DNA of 64,000 bases from a virus: positions 59,788 to 123,787 of the IMG/VR virus record IMGVR_UViG_3300045988_094674; one strand, 5' to 3'. Shown here piece after piece: positions 7,959 through 53,811 of the stretch; positions within the stretch are counted from its first letter, which is position 1; the number at the start of each line of letters is the position of its first letter. The notes below the pieces were generated by a model. The model did no database searches. It saw only the letters and a list, made by a program, of their open reading frames with translations, and was not told the DNA's origin. The position numbers were made by a program, and so were the translations under genes.

Positions 7959-8002
7959 TTTATTTTGGAATTTGTTACAATGGTGTCGTGAAGATTTTTC
8001 TC

Positions 8003-8034
8003 GGTTACATTTCAGGTTACATAGCTGGTTACAT
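8003..8034. repeat. three direct GGTTACAT repeats (right arm)
   Basis: GGTTACAT at 8003, 8015 and 8027, spaced 12 nt. The ORF track translates them as GYISGYIAGYI. Confidence 0.6.
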
Positions 8035-8068
8035 CAACTGGCGAGATTTTCAAAAAGGAGAGTCTAAA

Positions 8069-9214: not shown

Positions 9215-9252
9215 TCTAATTAAGGTGCATGAACACTCTCCGACGCCTTTTA

Positions 9253-9281
9253 TTGAATCGCAACAGAATAAGTGGCATAAT
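9253..9281 (+). promoter_or_regulatory. sigma-A/sigma-70-like promoter candidate
   Basis: TTGAAT (9253-9258), a 17-nt spacer, then CATAAT (9276-9281), about 30 nt upstream of the 9311 start. Confidence 0.4.
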
Positions 9282-9310
9282 ATAAAAAACCGACTTGGAG
9301 GTTTCGCACA

Positions 9311-9745
9311 ATGACTGAATTTGAAGTTGAACGTATCAAGCAAGCGCTCGCAGTTTTAAAAGAACAAAAACTTAAAACATATGAAGATCAGGTCGGTAGA
9401 TGTGATAACCCCAAACAATTGGCTAGAGAAGTCAAAAAGTATACCAGTGCTATAAATGATGTTGAGGCACTGCTTAAAAATTATGGTCTTCTTACGGCGG
9501 GCGTATCGCAAACAGCAGAGCAGTTAAATAGCCCTGAAAAAGAGCACATGTATCGCTTTGGTGTTAAATACAAAGCATATGCACCAGAAGAATATGCTGA
9601 TTGGGCTTATAACGAAGTCCGCACCCAAATCGGTTGTACGGAAAATGAAGCAAAAGAATATTTAGAATCACATTTGCAGTTTGAATATTGCAACGATAAA
9701 ACCTTCCGTGACTTACAAATCGAATTGATTGATCAATTTTATTGA
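9311..9745 (+). CDS. hypothetical protein
   Basis: Track ORF with GGAGG upstream. First gene after int. Confidence 0.5.
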   Translation: MTEFEVERIKQALAVLKEQKLKTYEDQVGRCDNPKQLAREVKKYTSAINDVEALLKNYGLLTAGVSQTAEQLNSPEKEHMYRFGVKYKAYAPEEYADWAYNEVRTQIGCTENEAKEYLESHLQFEYCNDKTFRDLQIELIDQFY

Positions 9746-25380: not shown

Positions 25381-28300
25381 TTATCGTTTGTTCAATCTCT
25401 GAACCATCTTGTTTGGAAGCTGTTGTACGATTTGACGAGCCAACGCATCTGTGTCGCCAACGGGGTTATTCACATTCACGTCGCCGATAGTCATACTGAT
25501 ACCGCCAGGATTACGAGACTGTACCATTGTAGCTGTGCTATGCTTTGCCATCTGGTCAGTAAACCACTTATCAGGATTTCCACCCATCTCAAACAGGCGA
25601 GAAGTAATGTCTGCAGGAACAACACCATCACCTGTTTCAAGATACGTATAACGACCGGATTGTGGTTGACGGACAATCAATTCGGAGCCTTGTTCATCGA
25701 CATTGTAAGTGCCGGTATGTTTAACTCCTTTATCACCGACAGCTTTCTTTCCCCAGTTCCAGAACCAGAATTTAGAACCCCACAGTTTATCCCAGAATGA
25801 TTGCTGTTTTTGCTGACCATTCGATACAGAAGAGCTAGAAGAGCTAGAAGAACCAGAAGAATCGGAAGTTTTATTTCCGTTATTAACTGTCGTCTGAACC
25901 GCATTGACAGTAATATTGGTCTTATTTTTCTTCTTTTTTACATCATTTGCCGTATCTTTGGTATTTTTGGACACATCGTCCAGCTGGCTAGTTGTCTTTT
26001 TACCCCAGTTCCAGAACCAAATAGGCCACTCATAAACTTTTTCGGCCAGTGTCTTGGATGTGGTTCCATTTTTCTTATCGTTAGCTCTTCCGATAGTATC
26101 ATGAATAAGAGCAGCGATTGAGAGGACACCACCTGACGAGTTAAAGACAGTAGAAAATAAGGACTTTCCAATCTTTGTCCCAGTATCATCATTACTTTTC
26201 CAGATTTTGTTCAAACCAGCAAAATGATTGACACCCACGCCGAGGCCGGCGAGGACTGCACCAACTATTGGAACAGCAGCCAGCAAACTACTTCCACCAG
26301 CAGCCGCAACAGCTGTACCGCCTGCGCCAGCTACGTTTGCTCCAATAGCTCCGTCAGCCATCAGCTTACTAAGACCAGTTAATCCTGCAGTATTCGTGGC
26401 TGTCATTGCAGGAACACTAGAAAGAGATACACCACCGATCCCAAGTAAGTTTCCAAGCCATCCTAAAATGCCACTTCCACCGCTTGTTCCAGCACCTTTT
26501 CCTCCAAATGCATTCGAGATAATTTTTCCGATATTGCTGATGCCATCAGAGAAAATAGAGGTTAGACTATTAGAAGAACTATTACTGAACAACGATTTTG
26601 CGCCAGATCCAATGGCATCCCATGCGTTTTGAAATACGCCAATGAGTCCGTTCTTAGTTGTAGCAGAGCCAAGCTCCTTCTGTGCGTTAACAACAGCATT
26701 CTTTACGCCATCGGTCATAGAGTTGTTGATAACGCCAGTAATGCCGTTTCCACCGAAAGTGACTTCCGTAGCGTCCGTAATCGTATCAAGGCTATTCGTG
26801 ATAGTCTTTGTAATACTTGTAGAGGAGTTCTTTCCGAAAACTTTCTTAACGGTATTTACAAGGCCAACAAAGCCACCATCTGTATATGTACCTGTCTGCA
26901 GGAAATTATAAACATTGTTCAGCTTTTCAAGAGTACCAATCAAAGACTCAAGATTGCTAATAACAGTCTGAATGCCAGAAATTGTGCCACTGTTTTGCAA
27001 ACTAGCGATAATCTTATTGTGATATCCATCAAGACTACCTGCCATCTGGCCGAGAGTCATTTCTTGAATCTGGGCAGTGTATTGGAGTTTCTTATTATAA
27101 TCGTCCCAACTAGTCCCAATATCTTCCATGACCTCAGACAACTTGTCCTTGAATTCGTTGTACTTTTTGATTTGGTCGTCAATGGCTTTCTCAGCATCTT
27201 CCTTATTCCACTGACGCTGTTTATCATTTAAATCCTGACGAGCAGTGCGCACAGCTTCGGGGTCAGCCTGCCACTCGTAACCATTCTCTGTATACACACG
27301 GCTGGTGCGCTGCTGTTCTGCACGGGCGAGTTCGTCCTGAGCTTTTGCCAATTCAATAGCACGCTCAGTTGCATCATTGTTTTCTTCAAGCGCTTCCTTC
27401 TGTTTGTTCAGAGCTTCAATACGCTTGTCGATAACATCACCCATCACATCGCCCCAAAGTTTGAGGTCGTTGGAATTGTTGGTATTGAACTTTTCAATAA
27501 GAGAGAGGAAAGAATTTAGAATGTCTTTTACATCAGATAGTGCATTCTTGAAGTTATCGATTACAGATTCTACGCCTTCCCAGTGTTTTTTAAGCTTTGT
27601 CGTGACCTGAGCATCAGTTTCCTGAACTTCAAGTAAAGATTCCTGTAAAGCACCATCTAATTCGGCTTGAGCTTCTTCCTTCTGTTGAAGTGCTTCATCT
27701 TCAGTTAAATCCTTATTAGAATTGATTTTAGAAATCTTTCTAGTATACCGAGCCAGAGCCTTTTGGTAAGTAAGAGTCTTTTTCGCCAACTTCTCATATT
27801 CTTCAGGAGTAGGCTCGCGGACATCCTCGATTGCAGCTTCGGCCTGAATACCGATTGGTTTACCCTCGAATTCCTTTGCAAGCTCTTTGAGCTGTTTGAC
27901 GTAATTGTCACGCAAAGTTTTTACATCAAGCTTTGCATTACCATCTTCATCGTAGCCCAACAGGCTAGAGAATTCGTCAGGCAAGGCCATCAAGTTTTGC
28001 ATTGTGTCCTGAGTGAGCTGACCAGTCTCGTTCCACTCGTCCATTGCGTCTTTCAGAGTATTCCAATTAGACTGGTAACGATCAAGAACATCATTAGCAT
28101 TGCTTAAATCAGTTCCAAGACCACTCGCCCAATCAGTCGGTGTTATTTTTCCTTGACTAATATTTTGAGATGCGCTATGATACGCATTGTAGAGAGCATC
28201 AGCTCCTGCGCCGCCCGTTTCCTTTGCAGTATTTGCAAGATCTTCTAACGTTTTAGCTAGAGCATTTTTAAACGCTTCGGTATTCAGATTGATATTTCCG

Positions 28301-30777
28301 TTTTCATCCACAATGTTATTGAGAAGATCAGGGTAATCCTTATACTGAGTAACAAGATTACGAATCGCATCTGTTTGTTTATCGATAGAATCTGCATCAG
28401 CAATACCAAACTGACTATCACCCAACGTTTTGATAACGTCTTTTAACCCAGAAAATGCGGATTTTATAGCATCCGTCTTTTCCTTAGCCTTGTCCATCGC
28501 AGTGCCGTAGCCCTTGATAGCGTCAGTCAACTGCTCAAAAGAGATGGTTTCAGAATCAACACTAGAATTCAACCAGTCGAGAATCTTCTTCATCTCGCCA
28601 GCAGACTTGCCACCATCATTAGCCGCATTTGCTTCCTTGAGTTGTGCCTTAATAAATGTGCGGAATTTGGCTGTATTAAGTTCAAGTTTTCCGTTTTGCT
28701 CCGTCAAACAAGCAGTAAACTTGTCATCGACACCAATCAGTGACTTCATTGTATCAGCACAGATATAACCATATTGGTTATATTCTTTCATGGCCTTTGT
28801 TAAGGTATCAAAAGCAGAAGCAATATCAGTCACAGACTTCGCAGTAGACTTGTTGTTCTTGCTGGCCTTATTTGTCGGGAACCCATTCAACTGATTTGTT
28901 AATGCTCGCCCACCCTTTAAAGCGGCATTCATATTGGTGTACAGCAAAGAAAGCTGAGTATTTGTGCGAGTCGTGATTTCCTCTAGTTTTGCAGGATCTA
29001 CGCCGCGTTCGCCGGCCTTCTCTACTTCGTTTGCAAACTCCTGAGCTGCACTGTATGTCGCAGTAGCCGCAGTAGCATTTTTCAAAGCAGGAAGAAGATT
29101 TTCCAGAGCAGTCTTTTCAGCCTCTGTTTTCTCTTTTAAATCATCAGTGCTTTCAGCCGTGTCATCTGCAGTAAGGTTTGCGACCTCATGTTGTGCGTTA
29201 GAAAGAATTGTGGCGGCAGCTTCTGCGTATTCAGCAGCAAGTAACTCGGCATAACTCTGTTTATTTATCTGGAGCTTACCATTAACAAGCTCAAGGCAAT
29301 TCAGATATTCGGTGTTCATCGTCAGTAAAGACTGAAGAGAATCAAGACTCATGTAACCATACTGATTGTACTCTTCCATTGCACTGGTAGAAGCTTTATA
29401 CGCAGACTGGATTTCATCCATTTTGGAAGAAATATCTTCCATCTTCTGTGCGCCAGCAGCCAATGCGTCAACACCATTTGCAGAAGACTGAGCTACAATA
29501 CCAACTTGAACAAGTGCTTGGATAAACGCATTCACACCGTTTGTGTCAGCAGAGAAGTCCATGTCGGTCAGAGCTTTGCGAAGATTTGCAAGGGCTTGAG
29601 CTTGCTCGTCGGATAATCCTTCGTTTGTACCCCACAAGAGTTCATTCAGCTTACTTGCATCAAATCCATCAATCGTATCTTCCAGAGTTTGAACAGCAGA
29701 ATTTACCTTATCGAAAGTAAAACTGACATCCATACTGTTATTATTGTCATTCTGCCAAAAATCAACTGCTTGAAGTTTTCTACGAGCGTTTGTATTGTTG
29801 TTGATAGCATCCGTTGAGTCGTTGTAAGAATCTACATCATCACGGAGAGCAGATTGTTCATCAAGCAAGAATTGATACAGACTATGATACGTTCCACCGG
29901 CAGCTCGTTCAGCCTCAGTTGTGTTATCAATGATATATTTTAATGCTTTGCCAACTTCGTTGTAATAATCAACAATTGAATCCGCATCATTTAACTTGTC
30001 AGGTCCATAACCACCGAACTTGTTAAAGACATCAATGCCAGCATTTTTAATCTGGTCTCCCATATCCATTTCAGGAGCCGACCAAACAGTAAGATAATGC
30101 GTCCGATTATTCTTCTTGGCTGTATCAACAAGCTTATCGCCTTGAGCATCTTTGTTCTGTGTCAACTCATAACGAGATGCCTCTAACTGCTCCGCTGTAA
30201 TATCCTGAAGTAATCCAAGCTGCTCTTCATACTTGCCATTTTGAAGGTCAAGTTTACCAAGTTTATTTTCATCAAGCGTTCTTTGTTCTTTCGCAAGATC
30301 AAGAATCTCTGCCTGAATGTCTTTTGCTTGATCAAAGTCCTCTGTATCCCAACCAGACTTGTCGCCAAGTTCTTCATAAGCACTGACCAAATCCTTTAAA
30401 GAGGAAGTGGTGCTCTGTGCAGCATCGGCGGCTTCCTTGGATTTCGTTGCGACATTTTGCACTCGTTGTGCCGCTTCCGTAATCTTCTTAGTGCCCCAAG
30501 AGACAAGCAGGCCAATTCCAACACCCAGCGCGGCATTGAGCAGTAAAGCTTCAGCTCTTAACGCAATCATTTTCAACCGCGTTCCTTCAAGTTCAAGTTT
30601 AGCTTGACCTGATAACATCCATTTGATAAAATCAGAAATAGAAAGATTAGTTTCGCCAGGAATACTCTTGTAAGCTTTATATTTTTCAATTAAAGCAACT
30701 AACGAAGTACCTACTTGGTTAAAAGCACTTATCTGTAATTCTTTTTCTTTGGAGTCAACCGTAAAGAAAGTTAATAT
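25381..30777 (-). CDS. tail tape measure protein, exon 2 (proposed)
   Basis: Track ORF 25381-30618 (1745 aa). Its frame stays open upstream to about 30850 with protein-like sequence and no start or SD. Proposed 3' splice site after G at 30778. Confidence 0.65.
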   Translation of the reverse strand: MLTFFTVDSKEKELQISAFNQVGTSLVALIEKYKAYKSIPGETNLSISDFIKWMLSGQAKLELEGTRLKMIALRAEALLLNAALGVGIGLLVSWGTKKITEAAQRVQNVATKSKEAADAAQSTTSSLKDLVSAYEELGDKSGWDTEDFDQAKDIQAEILDLAKEQRTLDENKLGKLDLQNGKYEEQLGLLQDITAEQLEASRYELTQNKDAQGDKLVDTAKKNNRTHYLTVWSAPEMDMGDQIKNAGIDVFNKFGGYGPDKLNDADSIVDYYNEVGKALKYIIDNTTEAERAAGGTYHSLYQFLLDEQSALRDDVDSYNDSTDAINNNTNARRKLQAVDFWQNDNNNSMDVSFTFDKVNSAVQTLEDTIDGFDASKLNELLWGTNEGLSDEQAQALANLRKALTDMDFSADTNGVNAFIQALVQVGIVAQSSANGVDALAAGAQKMEDISSKMDEIQSAYKASTSAMEEYNQYGYMSLDSLQSLLTMNTEYLNCLELVNGKLQINKQSYAELLAAEYAEAAATILSNAQHEVANLTADDTAESTDDLKEKTEAEKTALENLLPALKNATAATATYSAAQEFANEVEKAGERGVDPAKLEEITTRTNTQLSLLYTNMNAALKGGRALTNQLNGFPTNKASKNNKSTAKSVTDIASAFDTLTKAMKEYNQYGYICADTMKSLIGVDDKFTACLTEQNGKLELNTAKFRTFIKAQLKEANAANDGGKSAGEMKKILDWLNSSVDSETISFEQLTDAIKGYGTAMDKAKEKTDAIKSAFSGLKDVIKTLGDSQFGIADADSIDKQTDAIRNLVTQYKDYPDLLNNIVDENGNINLNTEAFKNALAKTLEDLANTAKETGGAGADALYNAYHSASQNISQGKITPTDWASGLGTDLSNANDVLDRYQSNWNTLKDAMDEWNETGQLTQDTMQNLMALPDEFSSLLGYDEDGNAKLDVKTLRDNYVKQLKELAKEFEGKPIGIQAEAAIEDVREPTPEEYEKLAKKTLTYQKALARYTRKISKINSNKDLTEDEALQQKEEAQAELDGALQESLLEVQETDAQVTTKLKKHWEGVESVIDNFKNALSDVKDILNSFLSLIEKFNTNNSNDLKLWGDVMGDVIDKRIEALNKQKEALEENNDATERAIELAKAQDELARAEQQRTSRVYTENGYEWQADPEAVRTARQDLNDKQRQWNKEDAEKAIDDQIKKYNEFKDKLSEVMEDIGTSWDDYNKKLQYTAQIQEMTLGQMAGSLDGYHNKIIASLQNSGTISGIQTVISNLESLIGTLEKLNNVYNFLQTGTYTDGGFVGLVNTVKKVFGKNSSTSITKTITNSLDTITDATEVTFGGNGITGVINNSMTDGVKNAVVNAQKELGSATTKNGLIGVFQNAWDAIGSGAKSLFSNSSSNSLTSIFSDGISNIGKIISNAFGGKGAGTSGGSGILGWLGNLLGIGGVSLSSVPAMTATNTAGLTGLSKLMADGAIGANVAGAGGTAVAAAGGSSLLAAVPIVGAVLAGLGVGVNHFAGLNKIWKSNDDTGTKIGKSLFSTVFNSSGGVLSIAALIHDTIGRANDKKNGTTSKTLAEKVYEWPIWFWNWGKKTTSQLDDVSKNTKDTANDVKKKKNKTNITVNAVQTTVNNGNKTSDSSGSSSSSSSSVSNGQQKQQSFWDKLWGSKFWFWNWGKKAVGDKGVKHTGTYNVDEQGSELIVRQPQSGRYTYLETGDGVVPADITSRLFEMGGNPDKWFTDQMAKHSTATMVQSRNPGGISMTIGDVNVNNPVGDTDALARQIVQQLPNKMVQRLNKR

Positions 30778-30801
30778 CGATTTCGAGGAGATGTGAAATC
30801 T

Positions 30802-31215
30802 ATGGAAAAATATGTACGGTATTGTCCATTTTGCGATAAATACTATTCAAGATGGGACTTATTATGTGCTTTTTGTATTCGAGACAATATTTTGCTTATA
30901 GAATGGAACGAAATGACAAAAAAACAAAAAGAAGAATGGAAAAATAAAACTAAGCCAAGGAGAAGTATTTCTGAAATAAATCCAGATACTCTCAAAAAAC
31001 TTCAAAAGAATGCCAATACTTTCGATTCCCAATATAGAGCAGAACTGGAAGAAAAGGAACATCCTAAATACACCCCAAAATGCCCTACATGCGGCTCGCC
31101 AGACCTAGAAAAGATCGGAACCGCTTCTAAAGTCTTGGATGTTGCTTTCTGGGGATTTGCCAGTGGAAAAGTGAAGAAAACTTTCCATTGTAAGAATTGT
31201 GGATATGAGTGGTGA
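30802..31215 (+). CDS. double zinc-ribbon protein (intron cargo, antisense to the TMP)
   Basis: ATG at 30802 after GAGGAG. CPFC...CAFC at the N-terminus and CPTCGS...CKNCGYEW at the C-terminus. Confidence 0.5.
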   Translation: MEKYVRYCPFCDKYYSRWDLLCAFCIRDNILLIEWNEMTKKQKEEWKNKTKPRRSISEINPDTLKKLQKNANTFDSQYRAELEEKEHPKYTPKCPTCGSPDLEKIGTASKVLDVAFWGFASGKVKKTFHCKNCGYEW

Positions 31216-31266
31216 TAAAAGAAAAGCCCTACTACACAAAGTAGCAGGGTAGTGGTCGTATTCGTT

Positions 31267-31872
31267 TTAGCGTAGAACGTATTTCGCAGTTTCGGAATCC
31301 AGATTGTCGTACATGAACTCGAATCGTTTTACGTGAGACATTGGGACACATAAAGCTGTATCATCATTTAAATGAGAAACAGCTTCATCCATCTTATCTC
31401 CGTTCCGATCAGTTGCTGTGGCATGGTAAGTCAAAACGATATAGTCATTATCGGCGTTTTCGATTGTGCCATAAATATAGGTTCCATCGTCCATATGAAG
31501 CATCACATCGGTTTGCCCACTAAAATCGATATGGCGAGTCCAAATATTGTCGCCAGTATCGTAGCCGAGATGATTACTAAACCACTTTCTTACCGGAATA
31601 GAGTTTTTGATTTTGTAAAACAAGGAAGAGCATACAATGCCAGTTACAATATAAACAATAACGATAGGAAAACCCTTGATAGTGAATCTTCCAAGTAAAT
31701 GGTCAGCGTAATCAACGATATACTTGATAGTAAATCCAAAAGCAATACTTAATGAAAGAAACCCTTGGTATTCAATTTTCTTTAAAGAAAGCTTTGTGTA
31801 AAACCAAACACAAAGAGCTCCTGGAACAAATACATTGAATAGTGTTTCGACATTATTTACTAGTTCCTTCAT
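31267..31872 (-). CDS. three-TM membrane protein with a soluble beta-rich C-terminal domain (intron cargo)
   Basis: ATG at 31872 after GGAGGG. Three hydrophobic helices, then DVMLHMDDGTYIYGTIENADNDYIVLTYH (Sm/SH3-like look, resembles DUF6338-type proteins; tentative). Confidence 0.5.
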   Translation of the reverse strand: MKELVNNVETLFNVFVPGALCVWFYTKLSLKKIEYQGFLSLSIAFGFTIKYIVDYADHLLGRFTIKGFPIVIVYIVTGIVCSSLFYKIKNSIPVRKWFSNHLGYDTGDNIWTRHIDFSGQTDVMLHMDDGTYIYGTIENADNDYIVLTYHATATDRNGDKMDEAVSHLNDDTALCVPMSHVKRFEFMYDNLDSETAKYVLR

Positions 31873-32047
31873 TCGACCCTCCATTCCCTCGTTGTTTATC
31901 GCGGTTTCTAAGATAAGAGCCGCCATGTGTTTTTACCGAATCTGTACCGGAATAAGTATAAGTATTCCTTGGAGACTGACGTTCTTGAGTCGGTGCCCCA
32001 TACGTAGAGATTTCATAATTCGGCACATGCTTTTTATTGTTTTCCAT
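31853..32047 (-). CDS. small hypothetical protein (intron cargo)
   Basis: Track ORF of 64 aa. AAGGAG lies 9 nt before the ATG. Low-complexity polar sequence. Overlaps the next start. Confidence 0.25.
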   Translation of the reverse strand: MENNKKHVPNYEISTYGAPTQERQSPRNTYTYSGTDSVKTHGGSYLRNRDKQRGNGGSNEGTSK

Positions 32048-32104
32048 GGTTCAACACTCCTTTTACAAGAGTGTATCACAGACTGTCGTAAAAAGCAACG
32101 CAAA

Positions 32105-32150
32105 TTAAAACGCCCGGCCTCCCAGTAGTAGGGAAGTCGGGCTTATTTTA
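32105..32150. terminator. strong bidirectional stem-loop terminator inside the intron
   Basis: GCCCGGCCTCCC (32112-32123) pairs with GGGAAGTCGGGC (32131-32142). An A-run lies on one side and a T-rich run on the other. Confidence 0.55.
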
Positions 32151-32167
32151 TGATGACTGCGCCGTTG

Positions 32168-32500
32168 TTATTTCAGAAGTTCAGCGATTTCTTCAGCAGT
32201 CATACCATTTGCCAGTGCGTTAGCAACGATATCTTCTGCCTTTTTACGATTCAGCTCTGCGGCAATCTTTTCATCGGCATCAGCCTTTTTCTTTTCGAGC
32301 TTTACAATCTCTTTATTGATTTTCTTCAATTCAGCTTCCTTAGCTTTTTTATCAGCATTCAGTGCAGCAATATTGGTGCCGAGTGCTGTGATTTCTTCAG
32401 CAAGAGATTCTGCGGCAGTATTCTTTTCAGCAATCTGTGCTGCGTAATCAATACCATCAAGAACCTTTGCTTTATTCTTACTTCCCTTGGGTCTAGCCAT
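32168..32500 (-). CDS. small coiled-coil protein with a basic N-terminus (intron cargo)
   Basis: ACGGAGGTG plus ATG at 32500. Sequence MARPKGSKNKAK..., then an Ala/Lys/Glu coiled coil. No nuclease motif. Confidence 0.5.
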   Translation of the reverse strand: MARPKGSKNKAKVLDGIDYAAQIAEKNTAAESLAEEITALGTNIAALNADKKAKEAELKKINKEIVKLEKKKADADEKIAAELNRKKAEDIVANALANGMTAEEIAELLK

Positions 32501-33021
32501 AATAAAACACCTCCGTATATTTTGGATACGCGATTGTAATATTATTATAGCCAGAATATCGTATGTAGTCAACGAATATTTTGTTTTCTCCTATTTTGTA
32601 TCGCGCCAGAGAGTAGCGCGTCTCCTCATTTCCACCTACTTCTTTAAGTCGTCTGGTTACGTCTGAGGTGGACTTCTGAACTTTCGCCCAGAACTGACTA
32701 TCCTTCCAGTGGTTGCTCACTGACCCTTTTTAGTCGATGAACCTTCCACCTTCCTACATTATATAATAGGGGAGTGGATCGGCTGCTGACCGCCCATTGT
32801 AAACGCTACTTAGCACTCGATTATTACCATATTTTGGCAATACGATAAAACCGAGCTTTTATCTCAGCATATAGCATCCATATCCTTGTTTCTATCTTTC
32901 GATTCCTACATTATATAAATATAACAATAGGCGATATGGCTCTTAGGGTTTCCCAGCACTCTAGGGGCTATTTTATTTTTACATGGTGCCGCATCCTATA
33001 TTTTTATACGCAACAAATATA

Positions 33022-35451
33022 AGAGGGCATATTAACTTTACCCGCACCATTTTTGAGCTTTCCGCTCATCTGCATTACAGACAACACGCCGGAAATGGCG
33101 GCTGTCAGAGTTGGTAATGCGCCAGCAAATTTTACAGCACTATCTGCACCGTCAACAAAAACAGTAGCAAGGCTTATAAAGAACTTCGGGATATCAGACT
33201 TCATCAAGTCCGTACTAAACTTCTGGAATGCAGAATCAAGCTGATTAAGCTTCGCCTGCAAGGAGTCCATGTACGTCTGGTTCTCACGCATTGCGCTGCC
33301 ACTAGAATTGAGTGCCTGCTTCATAGCGTCTTCAGCAACACTAAAATTATTCAGCAGGGCAGATGTACTCTGACCTCCTCTCTTTCCAGAGATCAGCTCA
33401 GTAATATTTGCCTGTGTTGTGTCAGACAGATCTTTCCAAACCTCAGAAAGTTCCTTCATAATCTGATAGGTTGATTTGAAGGTATTATTATCCTTCATAA
33501 TATCAACACCAGCAAGTTGCTTCAACTCAGATCGAAGTTCGGACACAGAATCTGCCATCCCATCTGTTGCGATACCGGCATTTTCTGCATCTGTTTTTGA
33601 AGCACGAAGGTACATACTCAAAGTTTTTAGGTAAGTGCCACTCGTATCTGCGTCCTGAAGTACACCGTTTACAGCAGACGCCAAACTAAGCGTCTCCTGA
33701 TATGTATTTCCGGCGGCAGACATCGCAGCGGAACTTTTCTGCATGATAATTCCAAGGTCGTTCATACTGACTGGTTCAGTATTAGCGATTTGGTTCATGC
33801 AGTCCAGAAGACGCTCTGCATCATCAGCAACCAACCCAAAACCTTGCATTGCAGAAATCAGGTAAGAAGAAGCAGTTGTTGCATTATCTATCTGGTCTCC
33901 AACATTAGCCATAAGAGCAGACACACGAGCAAGCTCTTCAGAGTCTTTGTCCGTATATCCAAGTCGCTTCTAATCGGCAGTGCTACTTACAAGATCAGAA
34001 ATATTAGCACCAAGATTACGAGCGTTTGTTGCAGTTCTATCGAGATATTCGTTCATCTCGTCGTCAGTCATTTTACTGACTTTTTTAAGCTCTGTTACAG
34101 CCGTATCAAGTTCCAGAACATTATTATAAACCTCTCGCAGACCTTGTTTGACCATAGCCACGCCAGCCATAGCAATAGCTGTCTGGAAGTGCTCCTTAAA
34201 CAGACGAGACAGTTTTTGACCAAGAGTTTCTGTAGTGGCCCCACATCTGCTGGCCTCAACCTCAAGATTTGATAGTCTTGCACTAAGATCAGTAACATTG
34301 CCTTCACAGCCAGCAGCAGAAGCTTTTATTCCGTTTAAACTATCAATTAGCCAAGAATATTTACTTTTATTTGCAATAGAGTCTTCTAACTTCGTTGCAC
34401 GTTCATAAACACTCTTAAACTTCGTCATATCAACATTGGCTTGATTTATATCTCTAAAATCAAATCCAAGTTCTTTTAAATGTTGACTTGTAGAATCAAT
34501 AGTTGTATCAAGAGTCTTGCATTTTTTATCAAAGTCTTGAATTGCTTTCCCTGGTGTAGTGTTCTCAATAGAAGCAAGCTGATCTCGTAACTCTTTTAAC
34601 TTTCCAGAAGTTTTTCCAGTTCCATCTTCTCCATATAAATATTTTTTGATATTATCATTTTTATAGTTGGAGTTATTCTTAGAATAGTTTTCAAGAGACT
34701 GAATCTTTTTTTGATATTTTTCATACTCGGATTCTTGAGATATGAGAGTCTTTTTTAAATCATCTGCAATTTCTTGATTTTGTTTTTTTAGTTCTTTTGC
34801 AGCCGAATCAGCACCTTTTGCAGTATTCCTGTCAGCATTGAATTTTCCGGTTTTTTCGATATCCTCAAGCTTTAACTTCTGAGTTTCCGTAATTACATCT
34901 TTTGTTTTTGTCTTGAGTTTATCCATCTCATCGTTGATTGCGCTCAATCTAGTCTGTACCGCTTTCAACTCAGATGATTTGTTTCCATTAGCAATTAACA
35001 ATGCTTCATCCGCTTTTAACTTTGCTTGACGATTTGCAAGGCTGAAAAGGCGAGAAATATCACTTTTTGAAGTATCTTGCGGTTTTGCAGAACCAGACTT
35101 TCCGGTATCAACCTTAACTGTCTGCTTTGCTGCAGATTGCATAGCTTTTTTAAGCTGTGCGGTTACTTTACTCTGGTCAACCTTAACATCAAGTGTAACC
35201 TTTGGAGTTCTTAATTTTCCACTCTTGACCACCTTGTCAAGTGCGTCATTTATATTGCGGATTGTATCGTTTTGATTCACTCCGAAAGCAATTTTTACTG
35301 GTTTTTCTTTATAATACTCTTTAACAGAATTAAATTGCTTGTCTAACTCTGCTTTATTTGCGTCAATAACAACCTTAACCTTGATAGCTGTTACAGAGGA
35401 AGTATCAGCACTACTTGCGGTGTTTGTATTATCCGCCATACCGTTGGTCAC
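33022..35451 (-). CDS. tail tape measure protein, exon 1 (proposed), with one in-frame TAG
   Basis: Track ORFs 33970-35451 and 33004-33924 share a frame and are joined by TAG at 33970-33972. The region ...ALMANVGDQIDNATTASSYLISAMQGFGL... resembles the TP901-type TMP core. Start is GTG at 35451 or ATG at 35439. Confidence 0.65.
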
Positions 35452-36137: not shown

Positions 36138-37127
36138 TCAAATCTCAAACCGATCCTTTGCAGACTGAATCTTTGTCGTATCCTTTTTGATGTAATACTT
36201 GTTGGTCACATCCGTGCCAGCATGGTTGAGCAGGGAAGAGACATCTTCCAGACTCATACCCGCATTCTTCAGCAGAGTAGCACCACTATGCCGAAAATCG
36301 TGCGGATGCAGCGTAGGCTCATCAATCATCTCACCAATCTTCTTACACCAATCACCGGCAGTGCTTGAAGTAATCGGCATCCATGCGTCATTGATTTTCG
36401 CACCAACAAACACATAGCCGCCATCCTCAATATCATGCTCAGTACGATATTCCTTCAGCTCTTTTAAAAGCTCAGAAACCTCCTTGCTGAACATCAAATC
36501 AACGATTTTGCCTTCCTTTTCCAGAACGTCATGTACCATGCGGTTCTCATAATCGATAGACTTCCAGAGTGTATTTCGCACAGCGTTAACACGAGCCATC
36601 GTGGACAGCGAGAATAGAGCATACAGCCGCAACGTCATCGCATTATCCTTCATGTGAATAGTGGTCGCAGATTCAACCAACACATTCAGTTTTTCTCGCA
36701 TCAGTTTAACCTCATCCGGCGTAAGGTATGTCTGCTTCACGACAGCCACGTCCTTAGTCGGTCGGTCAATGAACTCCATCGGATTCTCTTTGATGATTTT
36801 CTTCTTGCGAAGATACCGATACAGTGCAGAAATCGTGCTCATACGTCGCTTCATACGAGCAGAGTTATTTCCATGCTTCTTACAGTAGAACAGAAATTCC
36901 TCAATATCCTCTTCTTCAAGTTCTGTCACAGGGGCATTTCCCTGATTGTCCAGAACATAAATCATCCACTGCTTGAAATCCGATTCATAATTGTAAACAG
37001 TAGACGGGCTGAGATCACGGATGCCCATATCAGTCTCATATCTATCCCAGTATTTTAAAGACACTGGGTTTACGTTCTTGAACTTCTCAGCATCCCATAA
37101 CTTCAGCGGTTTACTTCTTGTAGCCAT
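36138..37127 (-). CDS. XerC/D-like tyrosine recombinase (second recombinase in the window)
   Basis: N-terminal SAM-like domain (...STISALYRYLRKKKIIKENP). Catalytic HDFRHSGATLL and LLNHAGTDVTNKYYIK. Confidence 0.8.
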   Translation of the reverse strand: MATRSKPLKLWDAEKFKNVNPVSLKYWDRYETDMGIRDLSPSTVYNYESDFKQWMIYVLDNQGNAPVTELEEEDIEEFLFYCKKHGNNSARMKRRMSTISALYRYLRKKKIIKENPMEFIDRPTKDVAVVKQTYLTPDEVKLMREKLNVLVESATTIHMKDNAMTLRLYALFSLSTMARVNAVRNTLWKSIDYENRMVHDVLEKEGKIVDLMFSKEVSELLKELKEYRTEHDIEDGGYVFVGAKINDAWMPITSSTAGDWCKKIGEMIDEPTLHPHDFRHSGATLLKNAGMSLEDVSSLLNHAGTDVTNKYYIKKDTTKIQSAKDRFEI

Positions 37128-37161
37128 ATTAAAATTCCCTCCAACCCACCTCTAAAAGTGT

Positions 37162-37671
37162 TTATTCCTTTTTATCTTTTGCCAGCACAACAGAGATCTC
37201 CTGCTTATTGTCCAGCAGGGCAGAAGTTACTTCAGAAAACTTTTCAACATCAAAGTCTTTCAAGTTACCCTTCACATCATTCAAATAGTTCTCCATAAAG
37301 TCAACGAAATCAGAAATGGGGTCGGGCTTCTTAATAATCTCATTGAGTTTGCCACAGAGACCCAGAACCAACCATTCCTTATGAGAACGATCAATCTGCT
37401 CGTGAACTGCCTTCTCCAGAGAATCATACTGATCCCAGAATGCAGAAGTATCACAACCAGCCTTGTTAATCTTGAAGTTAAAAGACTCGTAAGCAATACG
37501 CGGCCACTCACTCTGCGGCTCACTACGATAATCATAATCAGCAAAATACTTTAGAACGGTCAACCGAAACACCACATCAAGCAGCGCGGGCTGATAATCG
37601 CCGTCAATAGTACATGCCTTAACTACTTCATCAAGAAACTCATTTCGCTCCTGAAAATTTAAAACCTTCAT
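37162..37671 (-). CDS. acidic protein, possible tail assembly chaperone
   Basis: 169 aa, acidic, positioned between the tube gene and the TMP. No slippery site or frameshift partner identified. Confidence 0.35.
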   Translation of the reverse strand: MKVLNFQERNEFLDEVVKACTIDGDYQPALLDVVFRLTVLKYFADYDYRSEPQSEWPRIAYESFNFKINKAGCDTSAFWDQYDSLEKAVHEQIDRSHKEWLVLGLCGKLNEIIKKPDPISDFVDFMENYLNDVKGNLKDFDVEKFSEVTSALLDNKQEISVVLAKDKKE

Positions 37672-43118: not shown

Positions 43119-44703
43119 CCAAAATTTTTAAGAAAAATGTTTATCTAAAATATTTTCTACATTATCAAAATCTGTGTAGGGAATTCTGATAAGTTTGATT
43201 CCATTACGATTACAATATTCTGTTTTTAAAGAATCTTTCTTTTGCTGACTTTTATATGTACTAATAGAGTCGGATTCGGTTACACTCTTGCTAAACCTAA
43301 CAGGCATAAAATGTTGTTGCCCGTCGTATTCAATGCAAGTATTTTTTGATGGTATATAGAAATCAAAAGGAAGCTGCCGTTCATTTTTACAATCTTTAAA
43401 ACTGTATTCTCGTATGTAATCAATGCCATAACTATCGAGATAATTGCATACTTTTTCTTCACCATGAGAAGAACAACACTTTGGACATCCATGCCCGCCA
43501 AGAACTGAATTGACAGCTGTTGACCATTTGTAACCACATTTCTTACATTTAAAATTTGCATGAGATAATATATTTTTATATCCGCTCAAATACTCAACAC
43601 TTGGAGAAACCGTTCTTAGTCGTTCTATCATTTCAGACTCTAAAATATGTGCTCTCCCAGCACATTTTGGACAACCAGAATTTTTATTATTAAGTATCGT
43701 ATCAGGAATTGCGGTCCAATGGTAACCGCAAACATCACATGCAAAATCCACTTTCACAGCAACACGGACATATTTTGAAAGAACATGAATAGTAGGAAAT
43801 CGTTCACGCATTTCTTTTAAGAATTCATCTTCCGTTCGTCTGTTTGCAATCCGTCGATAACATTCTGGACACCCATGTCCATCAAGCAATGTATGAGATA
43901 TGCCATTCCACTCATACCCATCAAGTTTACAACGACAATGCACTCTCGCATTGTTTGTTGTGTATTCAGATAACAACTCAATATTAGGATTTACTTCAAA
44001 CAGCTCCGTGGAAAATTGTATTGGCGACTTTCTTTTTTCTGCTCCACGCTTAGAGGCAACACATGCTTGACACCCACGATTATCAAGCAACATTCTTGCC
44101 TGTACTTCACGTACATCCCCGCATACTTTACATTTCCTGGTAATCTTTTTTCGAAGACCATTATATTCGGATAAAATTTCAAAATTTGGGTTTACATCAA
44201 ACACTTCTTTTTTGAAGTCTTCTGTCGTTCTCATTGGTGTCATCCATGCCACCTCCTTTCTTGCAAAATAAAAGCCAGATACTCTACACAGCATCTGGTC
44301 AAATCAAAATATTAGATAAACATTATATCGGACGCTACTCCGCTCTTGTTGCATCTAGCAACCTCGTACTCTCATACGAGTGAAGACTATATCTTCACCC
44401 AGTAAAACTGGGGCACACCACTTCGGATGCCAAACACTTGCATCCTAACCGCTCCCACGCGGATAGTCGTTGGACCTTCTCCTTTTCGGAGCTTGGCTGC
44501 TGATTGCCCATTATTTCAGCGTTTAGGATTTAACCTTGCGCCATCTACAATTTTCTTTCTACTTTCATAACCACCCATCTAGGCATATTTCATCCTTCTG
44601 TTTTGGTAATTGTAGTTTTAGGGTTTTCCAGCAATTCAATGTGTATTTGTTATCGTGACTTACATCACGACTGGACTATATTACGTAAATTTACATAAAT
44701 TTA
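43119..44703 (-). mobile_element. group I intron in the major capsid gene (1585 nt, with HEG)
   Basis: Minus-strand core elements: P AATTGCTGGAAAACCC (44621-44636), Q AATCAGCAGCC (44495-44505), R GGTCCAACGACTATCC (44461-44476), S AAGATATAGTC (44385-44395). P/Q and R/S are complementary. The exon ends in U and the intron ends in G. Confidence 0.7.
43128..44243 (-). CDS. intron-encoded homing endonuclease candidate: four zinc ribbons plus a Vsr/PD-(D/E)XK-like nuclease domain
   Basis: AAGGAGGTG plus ATG at 44243. Four C-x2-C...GC-x2-C repeats (for example KCKKCGYKWSTAVNSVLGGHGCPKCC). C-terminal LPFDFYIPSKNTCIEYDGQQH...GIKLIRIPY. Confidence 0.65.
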   Translation of the reverse strand: MTPMRTTEDFKKEVFDVNPNFEILSEYNGLRKKITRKCKVCGDVREVQARMLLDNRGCQACVASKRGAEKRKSPIQFSTELFEVNPNIELLSEYTTNNARVHCRCKLDGYEWNGISHTLLDGHGCPECYRRIANRRTEDEFLKEMRERFPTIHVLSKYVRVAVKVDFACDVCGYHWTAIPDTILNNKNSGCPKCAGRAHILESEMIERLRTVSPSVEYLSGYKNILSHANFKCKKCGYKWSTAVNSVLGGHGCPKCCSSHGEEKVCNYLDSYGIDYIREYSFKDCKNERQLPFDFYIPSKNTCIEYDGQQHFMPVRFSKSVTESDSISTYKSQQKKDSLKTEYCNRNGIKLIRIPYTDFDNVENILDKHFS

Positions 44704-45525
44704 ATCCGGGATCAGCAGGGAACCATCACCCAGCTTCTTAGCAGAGCTAATACCAGTGATAGCAACACCATCGTAAGTCTTGACCAGGCCATAACGGTTG
44801 AACTCATCCTTAGCTGCATCAGACAGATACTCAGCGTAACCGGTCATACGACGCATCTTAGCACAATACTTCATCAGGCTGACAGTGAAGGGGTTACCAC
44901 CATCGGCGTACTCATTCAGATACAGAGCCAGAGCGTCCATGTCCTGCATAGTGGGCTCCTTACCCTGTACATCGATCTTCTGCTCGCCACCAGTGATAGC
45001 GTCATCAACCATGCTGAAGATGTCATAGAACATCTGGTTCTTCAGAGCCTCAGTCATAAAGGTGGTCAGAGTTGCCACACTCTTCCAAGCATTACGTCTT
45101 ACTTCCACAAAGCTAAGATCAGCCTCAATCTGCTTATTACGCCAGACGGGCTTAATGGTCTCGTAGTGCAGGTAAGACTTCGGCACGTTGCCACCCTTAG
45201 CTGCATCATAAGCCTTCAGAGTATTTTTAACAGTACGACCTGCCTCGTAGTCATCAAACTCACCAACATTACCACGCTCAAACATGGAGTCCAGAAGCTC
45301 GTCAGGTGCGCCATACAGCTCATCAGTCACGGTGCGATTAACAAACTGAGCAATTTCCTTATTGGGATCGCCCTTGTCAATCAGCTCCTCAACATGAGCG
45401 CCAACAACCTCTGCAATTTCCTTGTCCTCGGCATCCATAGCGCGATTGTACTGAGTCTTCTCAGCAACTTCATAAACACGACCAGGCTGCTTCATCAGCT
45501 CGGCCACTTCAATATTCAGTGCCAT
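44704..45525 (-). CDS. major capsid protein, exon 1 (proposed)
   Basis: Track ORF 44701-45525 (274 aa) downstream of the scaffold/protease gene, with G/C-richer codon usage. The TAA at 44701 is read as intronic. Confidence 0.7.
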
Positions 45526-52912: not shown

Positions 52913-52987
52913 TGGCACGCCCACTCCGAATCCAACAGAGATAAGTGAGTTTAGAGCTCACCGTCTTAGGCATTAAACGATAGGCGC
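52913..52987 (-). tRNA. suppressor tRNA, anticodon CUA (reads UAG)
   Basis: 75-nt cloverleaf: GCGCCTA-TC-GTTT-AATGCCTA-AGAC-G-GTGAG-CTCTAAA-CTCAC-TTAT-CTCTG-TTGGATT-CGGAG-TGGGCGT-G-CCA. Anticodon loop is C-U-CUA-A-A. Confidence 0.75.
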
Positions 52988-52992
52988 ATAAT

Positions 52993-53069
52993 TGGTGTAT
53001 CCGGCGAGATTTGAACTCTGCGATACCTCGATTAAAAGTCGAGTGCCTTACCAGCTTGGCTACGAATAC
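52993..53069 (-). tRNA. tRNA-Lys (UUU)
   Basis: Acceptor GTATTCG/CGGATAC. Anticodon stem CTCGA/TCGAG with loop CTTTTAA. The T stem needs one bulged A. CCA is encoded. Confidence 0.6.
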
Positions 53070-53136
53070 ACAATAAAACCTACCTTTTAGCCGGTGGTAG
53101 GGAACCGGTATAATATAGGCCCTCCGGGAGAAGGAC

Positions 53137-53228
53137 TGGCGCGGTCTCAGAGATTCGAACTCTGGCATCGGGTTTACCGACCTAACGGTTTTCAAGACCG
53201 TTCTCTTCAACCACTTGAGTAAGGCCGC
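53137..53228 (-). tRNA. tRNA-Ser (UGA)
   Basis: Class II tRNA. Anticodon stem ACGGT/ACCGT with loop CTTGAAA. Long variable arm. T arm CAGAG-TTCGAAT-CTCTG. CCA is encoded. One C.A mismatch in the acceptor stem. Confidence 0.75.
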
Positions 53229-53294
53229 ACAATAACCCTACTTTCCTGCACAGCTACCTTTATATAAAGGTGTAGGGAATAGCCGTACAATCTT

Positions 53295-53381
53295 TGGTGA
53301 GCCAGGTTGGAGTCGAACCAACGATGTTTCTAATGTCACGGAGTTACAGTCCGCTATCTTCGCCACTGGATATACTGACCC
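53295..53381 (-). tRNA. tRNA-Tyr (GUA)
   Basis: Acceptor GGGTCAG/CTGGCTC. Anticodon stem GCGGA/TCCGT with loop CTGTAAC. Long variable arm. T loop GGTTCGACTCC. CCA is encoded. Confidence 0.7.
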
Positions 53382-53613
53382 ATAATAAAACAAGCATCCA
53401 TCAATCCGTCCGAGCTAGTTGAATTGTCCTCGTGTTGATAAAACGCTTGTTTTAAACTTTAATGGTCCGCACTTACGGTGGCGGAACACCTGATGTTTTA
53501 AATCGCGCACTGACACGGCGCAATGCGATTGGCTTGGCATTTTGCTCCTCGAAGCTACTCTGCGTCTGACTTTACAGCTTATACACGGTTGCAACCAATG
53601 ACCGCTTTCGCCA

Positions 53614-53684
53614 TGCCACCTACAGGAATCGGACCCGTATGTGAAAATTACAAATTTCCCATTCTACCATTAAATTAAGGCGGC
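53614..53684 (-). tRNA. tRNA-Thr (UGU)
   Basis: Acceptor GCCGCCT/AGGTGGC. D arm ATTT-AATGGTA-GAAT. Anticodon stem GGAAA/TTTTC with loop TTTGTAA. T arm ACGGG-TCCGATT-CCTGT. No encoded CCA. Confidence 0.6.
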
Positions 53685-53811
53685 ACATAAAATAACCCGT
53701 AGACATCCGCCTACGGGCATAGAAAATGAGACAATAAATGATGTCCCAAAGCAGACCTTGCGGTCGTACTTCTTTTTTAATTACCCACTTATTGGTAGGG
53801 TATCACCGTTT

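Follow-up and report, generated by a model that had tools for sequence, protein, structure and literature searches.

Region 30802-32500 of a 64,000-nucleotide (nt) stretch of phage DNA (positions 59,788 to 123,787 of the IMG/VR virus record IMGVR_UViG_3300045988_094674; hereinafter, the window) belongs to the tail module, in which the late genes are located on the minus strand. Here, the gene for the tape-measure protein (TMP, minus strand) is split by a predicted 2,244-nt group I intron (33021..30778). The ribozyme occupies the first ~430 nt of this intron, ~1.8 kb upstream of the 3' splice site; the remainder comprises four genes, namely, cc, o64 and mem in the sense orientation and the convergent, antisense zn. 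The intron appears to be an island of accessory genes that is equipped with transcription signals of its own, is exchanged between related phages and resembles a moron; we give this reading a probability of about 0.65. It draws on direct observation of the anatomy of the locus, the RNA structure, the promoter, the terminators, the mosaicism among relatives, the codon usage and the contexts in which homologs occur. An earlier note on this region, made from the sequence alone, had proposed a cassette of three genes borne by an intron in a late gene. The group I intron is supported by an Rfam match and by covariation, and all three genes are present, but the fourth gene, o64 (32047..31853), had been overlooked. 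The features of the locus are as follows.

35451..33022, minus strand: TMP exon 1, 810 codons, ending in ...GKVNMPS; PhageMin_Tail-type TMP
33021..30778, minus strand: whole predicted group I intron, 2,244 nt, with the 5' splice site after U33022 and omega-G at 30778
33024..32602, minus strand: ribozyme, P1 to P9.2
32572..32544, minus strand: sigma-70-type promoter, TTGACT-17 nt-TATAAT, 11 of 12 matches, 43 nt upstream of cc
32500..32168, minus strand: cc, basic coiled-coil protein of 110 amino acids (aa), with an AT-hook-like start (MARPKGSKNK), a coiled coil and a C-terminal GMTAEEIAELLK; Shine-Dalgarno sequence (SD) GGAGG, spacing 9 nt
32142..32102, minus strand: intrinsic terminator downstream of cc, a hairpin (32142-32112) followed by a U tract, with a U-rich tract on the opposite strand as well; about -30 kcal/mol for the folded 71-nt stretch
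32047..31853, minus strand: o64, hydrophilic open reading frame (ORF) of 64 aa (MENNKKHVPNYEISTY...); SD AAGGAG, spacing 9 nt; overlaps mem by 20 nt
31872..31267, minus strand: mem, 201-aa membrane protein; SD GGAGGG, spacing 4 nt
31249..31217, minus strand: intrinsic terminator downstream of mem, CCCUGCUAC...GUAGUAGGG followed by CUUUUCUUUU; confined to the sense strand
30802..31215, plus strand: zn, 137-aa double zinc ribbon, antisense to TMP; SD GAGGAG, spacing 11 nt; start codon 24 nt from the 3' splice site
30791..30766, minus strand: 3' splice-site region, comprising UCUCCUC (30791-85, complementary to the zn SD), omega-G at 30778 and the conserved 12-mer that opens exon 2, ATATTAACTTTC (30777-66)
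30777..25381, minus strand: TMP exon 2, 1,798 codons plus stop, beginning with ILTFFTVD

The predicted group I intron in the tape-measure gene

Joining 33022 to 30777 yields a TMP of 2,608 aa with no internal stops. Exon 1, which contains a single in-frame TAG (33970-33972), can be aligned to the uninterrupted TMP of Enterocloster phage PMBT24, a 28% identical homolog that is continuous across the intron site. This is the only uninterrupted TMP found, and no intron-less close relative was detected among 80 IMG/VR loci or in INPHARED. These loci come from a scan of IMG/VR with the exon-2 protein that retrieved 80 contigs from related phages, the longest about 139 kb; more distant relatives were obtained in further searches.

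The Rfam model Intron_gpI (RF00028) matches 33026..32675 over its full length, exactly at the break of the TMP frame (22.7 bits, E 0.007), and a 71% identical ribozyme homolog in L088 is matched by the same model with 30.9 bits (E 4.6e-6). These matches come from targeted searches; when four whole loci were scanned with Rfam (50 kb searched at once), there was no match at E up to 0.5. A conserved group I catalytic core, including P3-P9, the P3/P7 pseudoknot and the guanosine site of P7, can nevertheless be assigned despite the sub-threshold Rfam score. A group I structure built by hand (P1, P3-P9, P9.1, P9.2 and the P3/P7 pseudoknot) was subjected to a covariation test on an alignment of 18 diverse cores, in which 98.2% of the cells are paired. 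Compensatory changes occur in 19 pairs, compared to 3.2 +- 1.6 in column shuffles (0 of 500 reach 19), and controls in which the partner was slid by 1-3 columns give only 1-4 compensatory pairs. Across these cores, P7 and P4 are invariant or nearly so. The elements of the ribozyme, with P8 also assigned, are the following.

33024-33015 / 33003-32994, minus strand: P1, UCU|UAUAUUU paired with AAAUAUAGGA
32968-65 / 32726-23, minus strand: P3
32958-53 / 32789-84, minus strand: P4
32735-31 / 32700-32696, minus strand: P7
32693-74, minus strand: P9
32672-32, minus strand: P9.1
32627-21, minus strand: invariant GAGGAGA between P9.1 and P9.2
32620-02, minus strand: P9.2

At the 5' splice site, the U33022.G32996 wobble in P1 is invariant in 18 of the 18 diverse cores, and the pairs adjoining it covary (AU to GC in 4 sequences, UA to CG in 2 and in 3). 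The P1 that Rfam assigns automatically (U33017.G33009) leaves the exons out of frame and fails in L045 and L077; it was replaced by the covarying helix. Among 70 relatives, the introns measure 1,852-5,881 nt, lengths that are not divisible by three, so that the insert is not translated through, and the exon boundaries are always in phase 0. In the frame of exon 1, a TAA stop follows 13 nt past the proposed splice site.

At the 3' end, a G followed by (A/G)T(A/G)TTA(A/T)CTTTC, which encodes (I/V/M)-L-(S/T)-F, is found at 80 of 88 loci despite differing surroundings; in the window, this G is 30778. The intron hence has a terminal G, and the exons join in one frame. Exon 2 possesses neither an SD nor a start codon of its own and begins with a conserved ATA, GTA or ATG directly after the conserved G; a search of the final 500 nt of the intron revealed no promoter on the sense strand. 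The predicted junction in the spliced RNA is ...AATATGCCCTCT|ATATTAACTTTC, which can also be given as AAAGTTAATATGCCCTCT|ATATTAACTTTCTTTACGG, and the corresponding junction peptide would be VNMPSILTFFTVDSK (...NMPS|ILTF...), within a single TMP of ~290 kDa.

The SD of zn, in the form GAGGAGA, is specific to this family. Among the ORF families of the islands, which are numbered F0 to F38, it is present in 88 of 108 zn copies and in 20 of 28 copies of F5, and in none of cc, mem, F3, F8, F10 and F16. Its complement, UCUCCUC (30791-30785), is also complementary to the ribozyme GAGGAGA (32627-32621), which is invariant in all 18 cores and, showing no variation, does not lend itself to a covariation test. 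Pairing of these two segments could guide the remote 3' splice site to the ribozyme. In 11 loci (L003, L008, L033, L038, L046-L051, L062), there are internal duplicates of the 3' junction, CAT...CTCCTC...G|ATATTAWCTTTC (e.g., L003 5025-5058), each attached to an extra zn gene, which suggests that modules consisting of zn and a junction stack up.

Several further observations pertain to introns in this phage group. The window contains a second group I intron (44704..44363, minus strand; Rfam 77.9 bits), apparently, in the major capsid gene. The ORF that follows its ribozyme core (44294..43128, minus strand, 388 aa) encodes DUF4379, CapR and DUF723 zinc fingers together with a DUF559 (Vsr-like) nuclease domain and, given this combination of nuclease and zinc-finger domains, is a canonical homing endonuclease. 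Because the capsid-gene intron has the same layout, with the core first, a coding extension after it and a distant 3' splice site, this layout is already in use in the genome. In L001 (MT837120.1; 5040-5480), a human-fecal phage contig, TMP is broken after the equivalent ...VPS codon by ~330 nt that are not homologous to the window ribozyme and have no Rfam match, followed by the same arrangement of promoter and cc and by a reverse zn-like gene; a different ribozyme may occupy the same site there. The L018-type loci and L083-L087 (e.g., L083, complement of 8735-9660) carry an extra insertion of ~360-440 nt in the P6 region of the ribozyme. In the L088 and L100 lineage (L088 1-4583; L100 1092-7052), TMP exon 1 is broken up as well, into several gene calls (1,621, 328 and 229 aa) separated by gaps of ~220-460 nt; further introns may lie upstream of the one studied here.

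Transcription signals and genes of the island

The TATAAT element of the promoter upstream of cc is perfect in 69 of the 69 alleles examined, and the -35 element is TTGACT or TTGACA in 41 of these; the position is kept while the sequence varies. By comparison, 0 of 1,080 random 130-nt windows from the same loci reach 11 of 12 promoter matches. With this promoter kept in position at all the cc alleles examined and with two intrinsic terminators, the island has a promoter and terminators of its own, as expected of a moron. All four genes are preceded by a good SD, in agreement with the strong SDs that the earlier note had mentioned, and zn (30802-31215), on the plus strand, indeed runs against the late operon. 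The bidirectional terminator that had been placed at 32105-32150 as an insulator does exist as a hairpin (32142..32112) that is U-rich on both strands, but it is located between genes of the same strand, so that the insulation is merely formal.

The start codon of mem is most likely ATG 31872 rather than 31926, and the resulting length of 201 aa fits the homologs of 199-205 aa. The overlapping o64 is conserved with mem in relatives: it is always found together with mem, its N-terminus is kept and its indels come in triplets; beyond the N-terminus, it is poorly conserved. Two candidate promoters for zn were rejected, namely, a 10/12 match at 30604-30632 that is common to only 25 loci, all with exon-2 alleles close to that of the window, and TAATAT (the complement of the exon-2 start) as a -10 element, which lacks a conserved -35 element.

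Conservation and exchange of the island among related phages

An island is located between the TMP exons at 80 of the 80 related loci, with sizes from 1.9 to >6 kb. At all these loci, cc comes first after the ribozyme and has the sense orientation. The zn gene is found at 79 of the 80, always antisense, with 20-30 nt between its start codon and the 3' splice site and often in two or three copies, and o64-mem is present at 47, with 27-99% identity. Presence in some relatives and absence in others, as is typical of morons, is thus seen for o64-mem (47/80) and other middle genes, but not for cc and zn, which, judging by their distribution, behave as fixed framework genes rather than as cargo that comes and goes.

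The middle genes of relatives include a gene with the SocA_Panacea antitoxin domain (F8, E 5e-20) accompanied by an overlapping 198-aa partner (F10), and a DUF3800 gene (F16, 2.5e-16) that also matches the PADLOC candidate PDC-M04A (4.6e-7). F5, a retropepsin-like aspartyl protease, and F3, a protein of 216 aa, are encoded in the antisense orientation downstream of zn, and a Peptidase_M78 gene is found in the L088 and L100 lineage. None of the cargo proteins was found to contain a domain typical of homing endonucleases or maturases.

The island is a mosaic. Between L063 and the window, identity is 59% in exon 1, 94% in cc, 98% in mem, 35% in zn and 56% in exon 2. Compared to phages with other exon-1 alleles, the window shows nucleotide identity of 40-60% until ~60-100 nt before the intron, then 91-100% through the ribozyme, and dependent on the allele after P9.2. 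That diverged phages have a nearly identical ribozyme is reminiscent of homing, although no endonuclease is present. These patterns indicate that the ribozyme on the left and zn plus the exon-2 12-mer junction on the right behave as the fixed flanks of a recombination hot spot.

Homologs of o64 and mem also occur outside TMP introns. In a 35-kb temperate phage, a 52-aa ORF overlaps a DUF6338-like gene between holin and integrase; the holin-integrase interval is a classic lysogenic-conversion spot. In another phage (L094), a 67-aa ORF and a mem-like gene reside in an island just downstream of a complete TMP, along with helix-turn-helix (HTH), Panacea and DarT-Macro genes; the latter we take to be DarTG, a known defense toxin-antitoxin system. 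The earlier note had suggested looking for homologs at other prophage moron positions, and these are two such cases. Small overlapping upstream ORFs equivalent to o64 are found in L083, L091 and L094, and the mem homologs of L091 and L094 are not accompanied by zn. Because the small ORF accompanies distant mem homologs in other prophage islands, o64-mem is, from the comparison of these loci, a conserved unit that travels among prophage accessory islands. The conserved unit is therefore not mem-zn, and the pairing of the membrane protein with the zinc-ribbon protein that had been proposed does not hold, with zn in 79 and mem in 47 of the 80 islands and with mem homologs that lack zn altogether. 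A search for mem in bacterial defense islands returned one match in 185,579 species genomes, and that match is itself on a phage-like contig.

TAG usage in the cargo genes

In-frame TAG codons are present in several late genes of the phage, and the window encodes a tRNA that would read them.

52913-52987, minus strand: suppressor tRNA, anticodon CUA, reading TAG in late genes; labeled tRNA-Pyl by ARAGORN

The greedy ORF set of the window contains 25 in-frame TAG in 18,942 codons, and TMP contains 1 in about 2,600. At this frequency, ~0.5 in-frame TAG is expected in the ~510 cargo codons, so that the absence of TAG from the cargo of the window, which the earlier note had correctly recorded, is not significant and becomes meaningful only when relatives are considered. 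The cc, mem and zn homologs of relatives, with about 35,700 aligned codons, contain 0 in-frame TAG, a count over related sequences and hence not a formal test. Furthermore, TAG serves as the stop codon in 14 of 14 copies of F10 and in 19 of 52 copies of F3 (the 216-aa antisense ORF). The lack of in-frame TAG across relatives and the TAG stops in F10 and F3 fit, at the level of codons, translation of the cargo under the standard code, before the suppressor tRNA acts. The F10 and F3 proteins would then be extended late, once the suppressor tRNA is made, and such extension could function as a timing device.

Predicted structures and families of the proteins

For cc, o64, mem and zn, there are no significant matches in Pfam, PHROGs, NCBIfam, PADLOC or PDB sequence searches; in PADLOC-DB 2.0, mem and zn have no match and cc gives coiled-coil noise only. 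Searches of Pfam, PHROGs and NCBIfam and the fold search detected no homing endonuclease or maturase domain (LAGLIDADG, GIY-YIG, HNH, His-Cys box, PD-(D/E)XK/Vsr-like) in any of the four; clear homology of this kind is what the earlier note had named as contradicting its proposal.

The AlphaFold model of mem (predicted local distance difference test, pLDDT, 85) consists of three long hydrophobic helices, one additional short helix and a beta-barrel at the C-terminus. In a Foldseek search against PDB, the barrel matches Sm/LSm proteins (LSm14, Edc3, SmAP and Lsm1-7 chains) with a probability of 1.0, TM-scores of 0.6-0.77 and E about 1e-3. The predicted C-terminal domain is thus a five-stranded bent beta-barrel superposable on Sm domains, and the description of mem as a three-transmembrane protein with an Sm/SH3-like C-terminal domain is borne out by the model and the fold match. 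A profile search with mem retrieves 235 clusters of proteins of ~200 aa. Among 44 sampled members of this extended family, 14 match DUF6338 over the full length (best E 4.5e-9), and two examples reach 26.2 and 21.3 bits, with the cut-off at 26.5; the window mem itself has no Pfam match above threshold, DUF6338 included. By this profile-based evidence, mem would be distantly related to DUF6338. Pfam scans of mem and o64 found no mechanosensitive-channel, holin or toxin family.

The zn family has eight invariant cysteines (C8, C11, C22, C25, C94, C97, C130, C133) that make up two CxxC...CxxC ribbons, and the model (pLDDT 80) contains two zinc ribbons joined by a long helix, as the earlier identification of a zinc-ribbon protein with four pairs of cysteines implied. 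The fold search with zn yields generic zinc ribbons only, with no informative match. Between the C-terminal ribbon and the zinc-finger modules of the capsid-intron endonuclease, there is a weak similarity (pairwise E 5e-4). The possibility that zn is a degenerate homing endonuclease was considered and rejected: the similarity is a weak one limited to zinc fingers, and no nuclease-associated domain is present in 36 family members. The cc family comprises 393 clusters, with only weak coiled-coil and DUF4315 matches.

The phage, its relatives and hosts

The window encodes an integrase without TAG (7988-9214, plus strand). One relative is a prophage within a 2.55-Mb contig, with SPbeta-like markers (YomN), and a decayed prophage (L098, L099; 5375-11600), located beside bacterial metabolic genes, has lost TMP exon 2 and kept a fragment of exon 1 together with an island of cc, o64-mem, F3 and zn. 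The phage is thus temperate, as seen from the integrase in the window, the relative integrated in the 2.55-Mb contig and the decayed prophage that keeps the island. The remnant in L098 and L099 could reflect retention of the island by the host. The single match to mem in the species genomes is on a phage-like contig in a Faecalibacterium metagenome-assembled genome, which hints at Faecalibacterium as the host of this phage group.

The suppressor tRNA belongs to a cluster of five tRNA genes (52913-53685, minus strand), for the suppressor (CUA), Lys, Ser, Tyr and Thr. Two genes upstream of TMP, there is a Xer-like tyrosine recombinase (36138-37190, minus strand; Phage_integrase E 1.4e-20) with one in-frame TAG, and this synteny is also found in the distant L083-L087. 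The TAG-free plus-strand region contains an auxiliary metabolic gene for FolD (methylenetetrahydrofolate dehydrogenase/cyclohydrolase; 6615-7445, plus strand; Pfam E 4e-36 and 9e-27).

A scenario for the intron island

In the scheme that we infer, which includes splicing, expression in the lysogen and the functions of every protein, the host RNA polymerase would transcribe cc in the lysogen from the intron promoter, under the standard code; o64-mem would be transcribed by read-through or from an unseen promoter, and zn from a separate promoter. During late lytic growth, transcription would cross the island, the intron would splice itself out and the exons would be joined in frame to encode the 2,608-aa TMP. 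Related phages would swap cassettes by recombination between the fixed flanks. Under this scheme, the intron would be a safe harbor for morons inside an essential gene. By analogy, our best guess is that o64-mem provides prophage-expressed protection at the inner (cytoplasmic) membrane. The single most likely form of such protection, itself proposed only tentatively, would be superinfection exclusion at the stage of DNA entry, an analogy with HK97 gp15 and Ltp that reportedly act on the TMP of the incoming phage.

The moron-like organization that the earlier note had proposed is retained in part: the island has its own promoter and terminators, resides in a temperate phage and has a hypervariable middle with toxin-antitoxin-like genes, but cc and zn form a fixed framework. 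Several findings weigh against the interpretation of the intron as a moron-like island. Both cc and zn are never absent, unlike a moron, and the G+C content of the island (0.39-0.41) is the same as that of the surroundings. The Rfam scores (22.7 bits; 30.9 bits for L088) are below the gathering threshold of the family, 50 bits. Two intrinsic terminators on the sense strand lie between the ribozyme and the 3' splice site, so that late transcription would need read-through or antitermination, and no promoter for zn was found. Predicted duplexes of the ribozyme with the final 40 nt of the intron, in at most five loci, do not rise above shuffled sequence, and thus, no long-range guide pairing is demonstrated. 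The duplicate 3' junctions in the 11 relatives could act as cryptic 3' splice sites and cause mis-splicing. Finally, none of the four window proteins matches a known defense protein, a named family or an informative solved structure.

Alternative explanations

A serious alternative, although we consider it less probable than not, is that cc and zn serve the intron or the island itself (help with splicing, regulation or exchange of cassettes) and only the middle genes are morons; for the rest of the island, it is compatible with the above. Under this alternative, cc would act as a chaperone of RNA or DNA and assist the ribozyme in reaching a splice site 2-6 kb away, and zn would be a DNA-binding remnant of, or partner for, a homing function by which the intron and its cargo spread among co-infecting phages. 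The constant positions of cc next to the ribozyme and of zn abutting the 3' splice site are what this predicts, and the abrupt rise to 91-100% identity that covers the ribozyme and ~60-100 nt of exon 1, in genes where the rest of exon 1 is 40-60% identical, resembles a homing co-conversion tract. The resemblance of the C-terminal zn ribbon to the zinc fingers of the capsid-intron endonuclease (E 5e-4) and the zn-specific SD, GAGGAGA, the complement of which is able to pair with the invariant ribozyme GAGGAGA, point in the same direction. However, the island proteins of the window contain no nuclease, LAGLIDADG, GIY-YIG or HNH domain, and their structural matches are uninformative; cc has a host-type promoter of its own; zn, being antisense, is untranslatable from the intron RNA; L088 combines a working-looking ribozyme with an island without cc; and the duplex prediction yields nothing above shuffled controls.

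With respect to o64-mem alone, the next most likely role after superinfection exclusion, and a rather doubtful one, is that of a membrane toxin-antitoxin or abortive-infection module. In such a module, mem would be a membrane-disrupting effector with a cytoplasmic Sm-like oligomerization domain, restrained by o64 until infection. Sm-like barrels usually form rings, which fits an oligomerizing effector. The overlapping two-gene layout is kept in very distant homologs, relatives carry toxin-antitoxin-like cargo (the Panacea pair; DarT-Macro in L094), and the decayed prophage retains the island, all of which favor this role. Conversely, no PADLOC model matches, neither mem nor o64 matches a named Pfam family (including mechanosensitive channel, holin or toxin families), and o64 is poorly conserved outside the N-terminus.

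A more elaborate and unlikely possibility is that the TMP intron is a dedicated cassette platform run by cc and zn rather than a passive safe harbor. The start region of zn would double as a guide for the 3' splice site (UCUCCUC with GAGGAGA), and transcription or translation of zn in the lysogen would block TMP splicing that late transcription would permit, resulting in a switch between prophage defense and tail assembly. The stacked zn-junction repeats of the 11 relatives would then be footprints of cassette capture.

It is improbable that there is no splicing at all, with TMP made as two polypeptides or by RNA trans-splicing, the island being intergenic and the ribozyme-like RNA having another job, such as processing of the cc messenger. 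The two sense-strand terminators that separate the core from exon 2, the sub-threshold Rfam score, the TAA that exon 1 reaches 13 nt after the proposed splice site and the L098 and L099 remnant without exon 2 are all compatible with such an arrangement. Against it, exon 2 has neither a start codon nor a ribosome-binding site, with the conserved ATA/GTA/ATG directly following the conserved G; the P1 helix with the U.G pair covaries; a homologous TMP is continuous across the site; and the last 500 nt of the intron lack a sense-strand promoter.

Excision of the island as DNA before tail synthesis by the Xer-like tyrosine recombinase, akin to skin or SPbeta in Bacillus, could account for the presence of a recombinase with an in-frame TAG (and so presumably late) in the tail module here and in L083-87 and for the short ATATT common to both junctions, but is highly improbable given that no direct repeats of >5 nt flank the island, that the conserved, covarying ribozyme at the left end would be left without a role, and that the island is present in all assembled phage contigs, including IMG/VR contigs of 110-139 kb, some perhaps virion-derived.

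Implications

The island described here is a multi-gene, two-strand, rapidly exchanged unit with its own promoter inside an essential tail gene, and hundreds of contigs from human-gut phages and prophages contain it. Provided that splicing and expression in the lysogen are real, such islands would represent a new way for temperate phages to keep morons or defense genes without cost to the structural gene. They would also explain the fragmented tape-measure annotations in gut viromes and would provide a defined place to mine for exclusion and defense genes, including the DUF6338-like o64-mem and the universal cc and zn.

Comparison with known systems

To our knowledge, phage group I introns are viewed as selfish elements that carry at most a homing endonuclease. 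The best-known cases are the T4 introns in td, nrdB and sunY/nrdD; as reportedly described by Michel and colleagues (1992, Genes Dev), the ORF of the sunY/nrdD intron is located 3' of the catalytic core, with the 3' splice junction ~1 kb away. The TMP intron resembles these group I introns in that the ribozyme core comes first and the coding cargo follows in a long 3' extension, with the terminal G far away, a phage gene as the host and an ORF with its own expression signals. Unlike the T4 introns, the TMP intron carries cargo that is not a homing endonuclease: there are four genes in the window and as many as about ten in relatives. These genes are encoded on both strands and accompanied by a host-type promoter and two terminators, their content is hypervariable, and the introns reach >6 kb.

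Morons in tail operons are said to include bor and lom of phage lambda, as well as HK97 gp15, a membrane protein responsible for superinfection exclusion (work attributed to Juhala and colleagues in 2000 and to Cumby and colleagues in 2012). The island shares with the lambda and HK97 morons the promoter-gene-terminator unit in the late operon of a temperate phage, the variable presence (o64-mem at 47 of 80 loci) and a small membrane protein as the product, and with morons of the HK97 gp15 type, specifically, the location in the tail module by TMP, the target of known exclusion proteins. It differs from the lambda and HK97 morons in that it lies inside a gene, where the intron would make it harmless, is flanked by the constant cc and zn, does not have an atypical G+C content and is known from sequence alone.

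P2/P4-type hot spots and mycobacteriophage prophage-mediated defense are examples of defense and accessory-gene hot spots of prophages and satellites, with conserved genes as flanks. Like the P2/P4-type hot spots, the TMP island combines conserved flanks with a variable middle, Panacea, DUF3800 and DarT-Macro genes (the latter in a related island type) and recombination between relatives. Unlike in those hot spots, the left flank is a ribozyme and the right flank is a splice site, and the island interrupts an essential structural gene in a manner that depends on splicing. At the level of the protein family, the extended mem family resembles Pfam DUF6338, a family of membrane proteins, in its length of ~200 aa and in the full-length matches of 14 of the 44 members sampled; unlike DUF6338 proteins, the window mem is below every Pfam threshold, and DUF6338 itself is without an assigned function, so that membership explains nothing yet.

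In a paper on gut phages that recode stop codons, ordinary intron endonucleases are all that is mentioned in this regard, and the literature searched on cargo-bearing introns, TMP-gene introns, DUF4315 and DUF6338 includes nothing that describes such an arrangement. Thus, the separate parts are known, namely, the 3'-extended group I intron, the tail morons and the flanked hot spots, and their combination is new in the literature searched.

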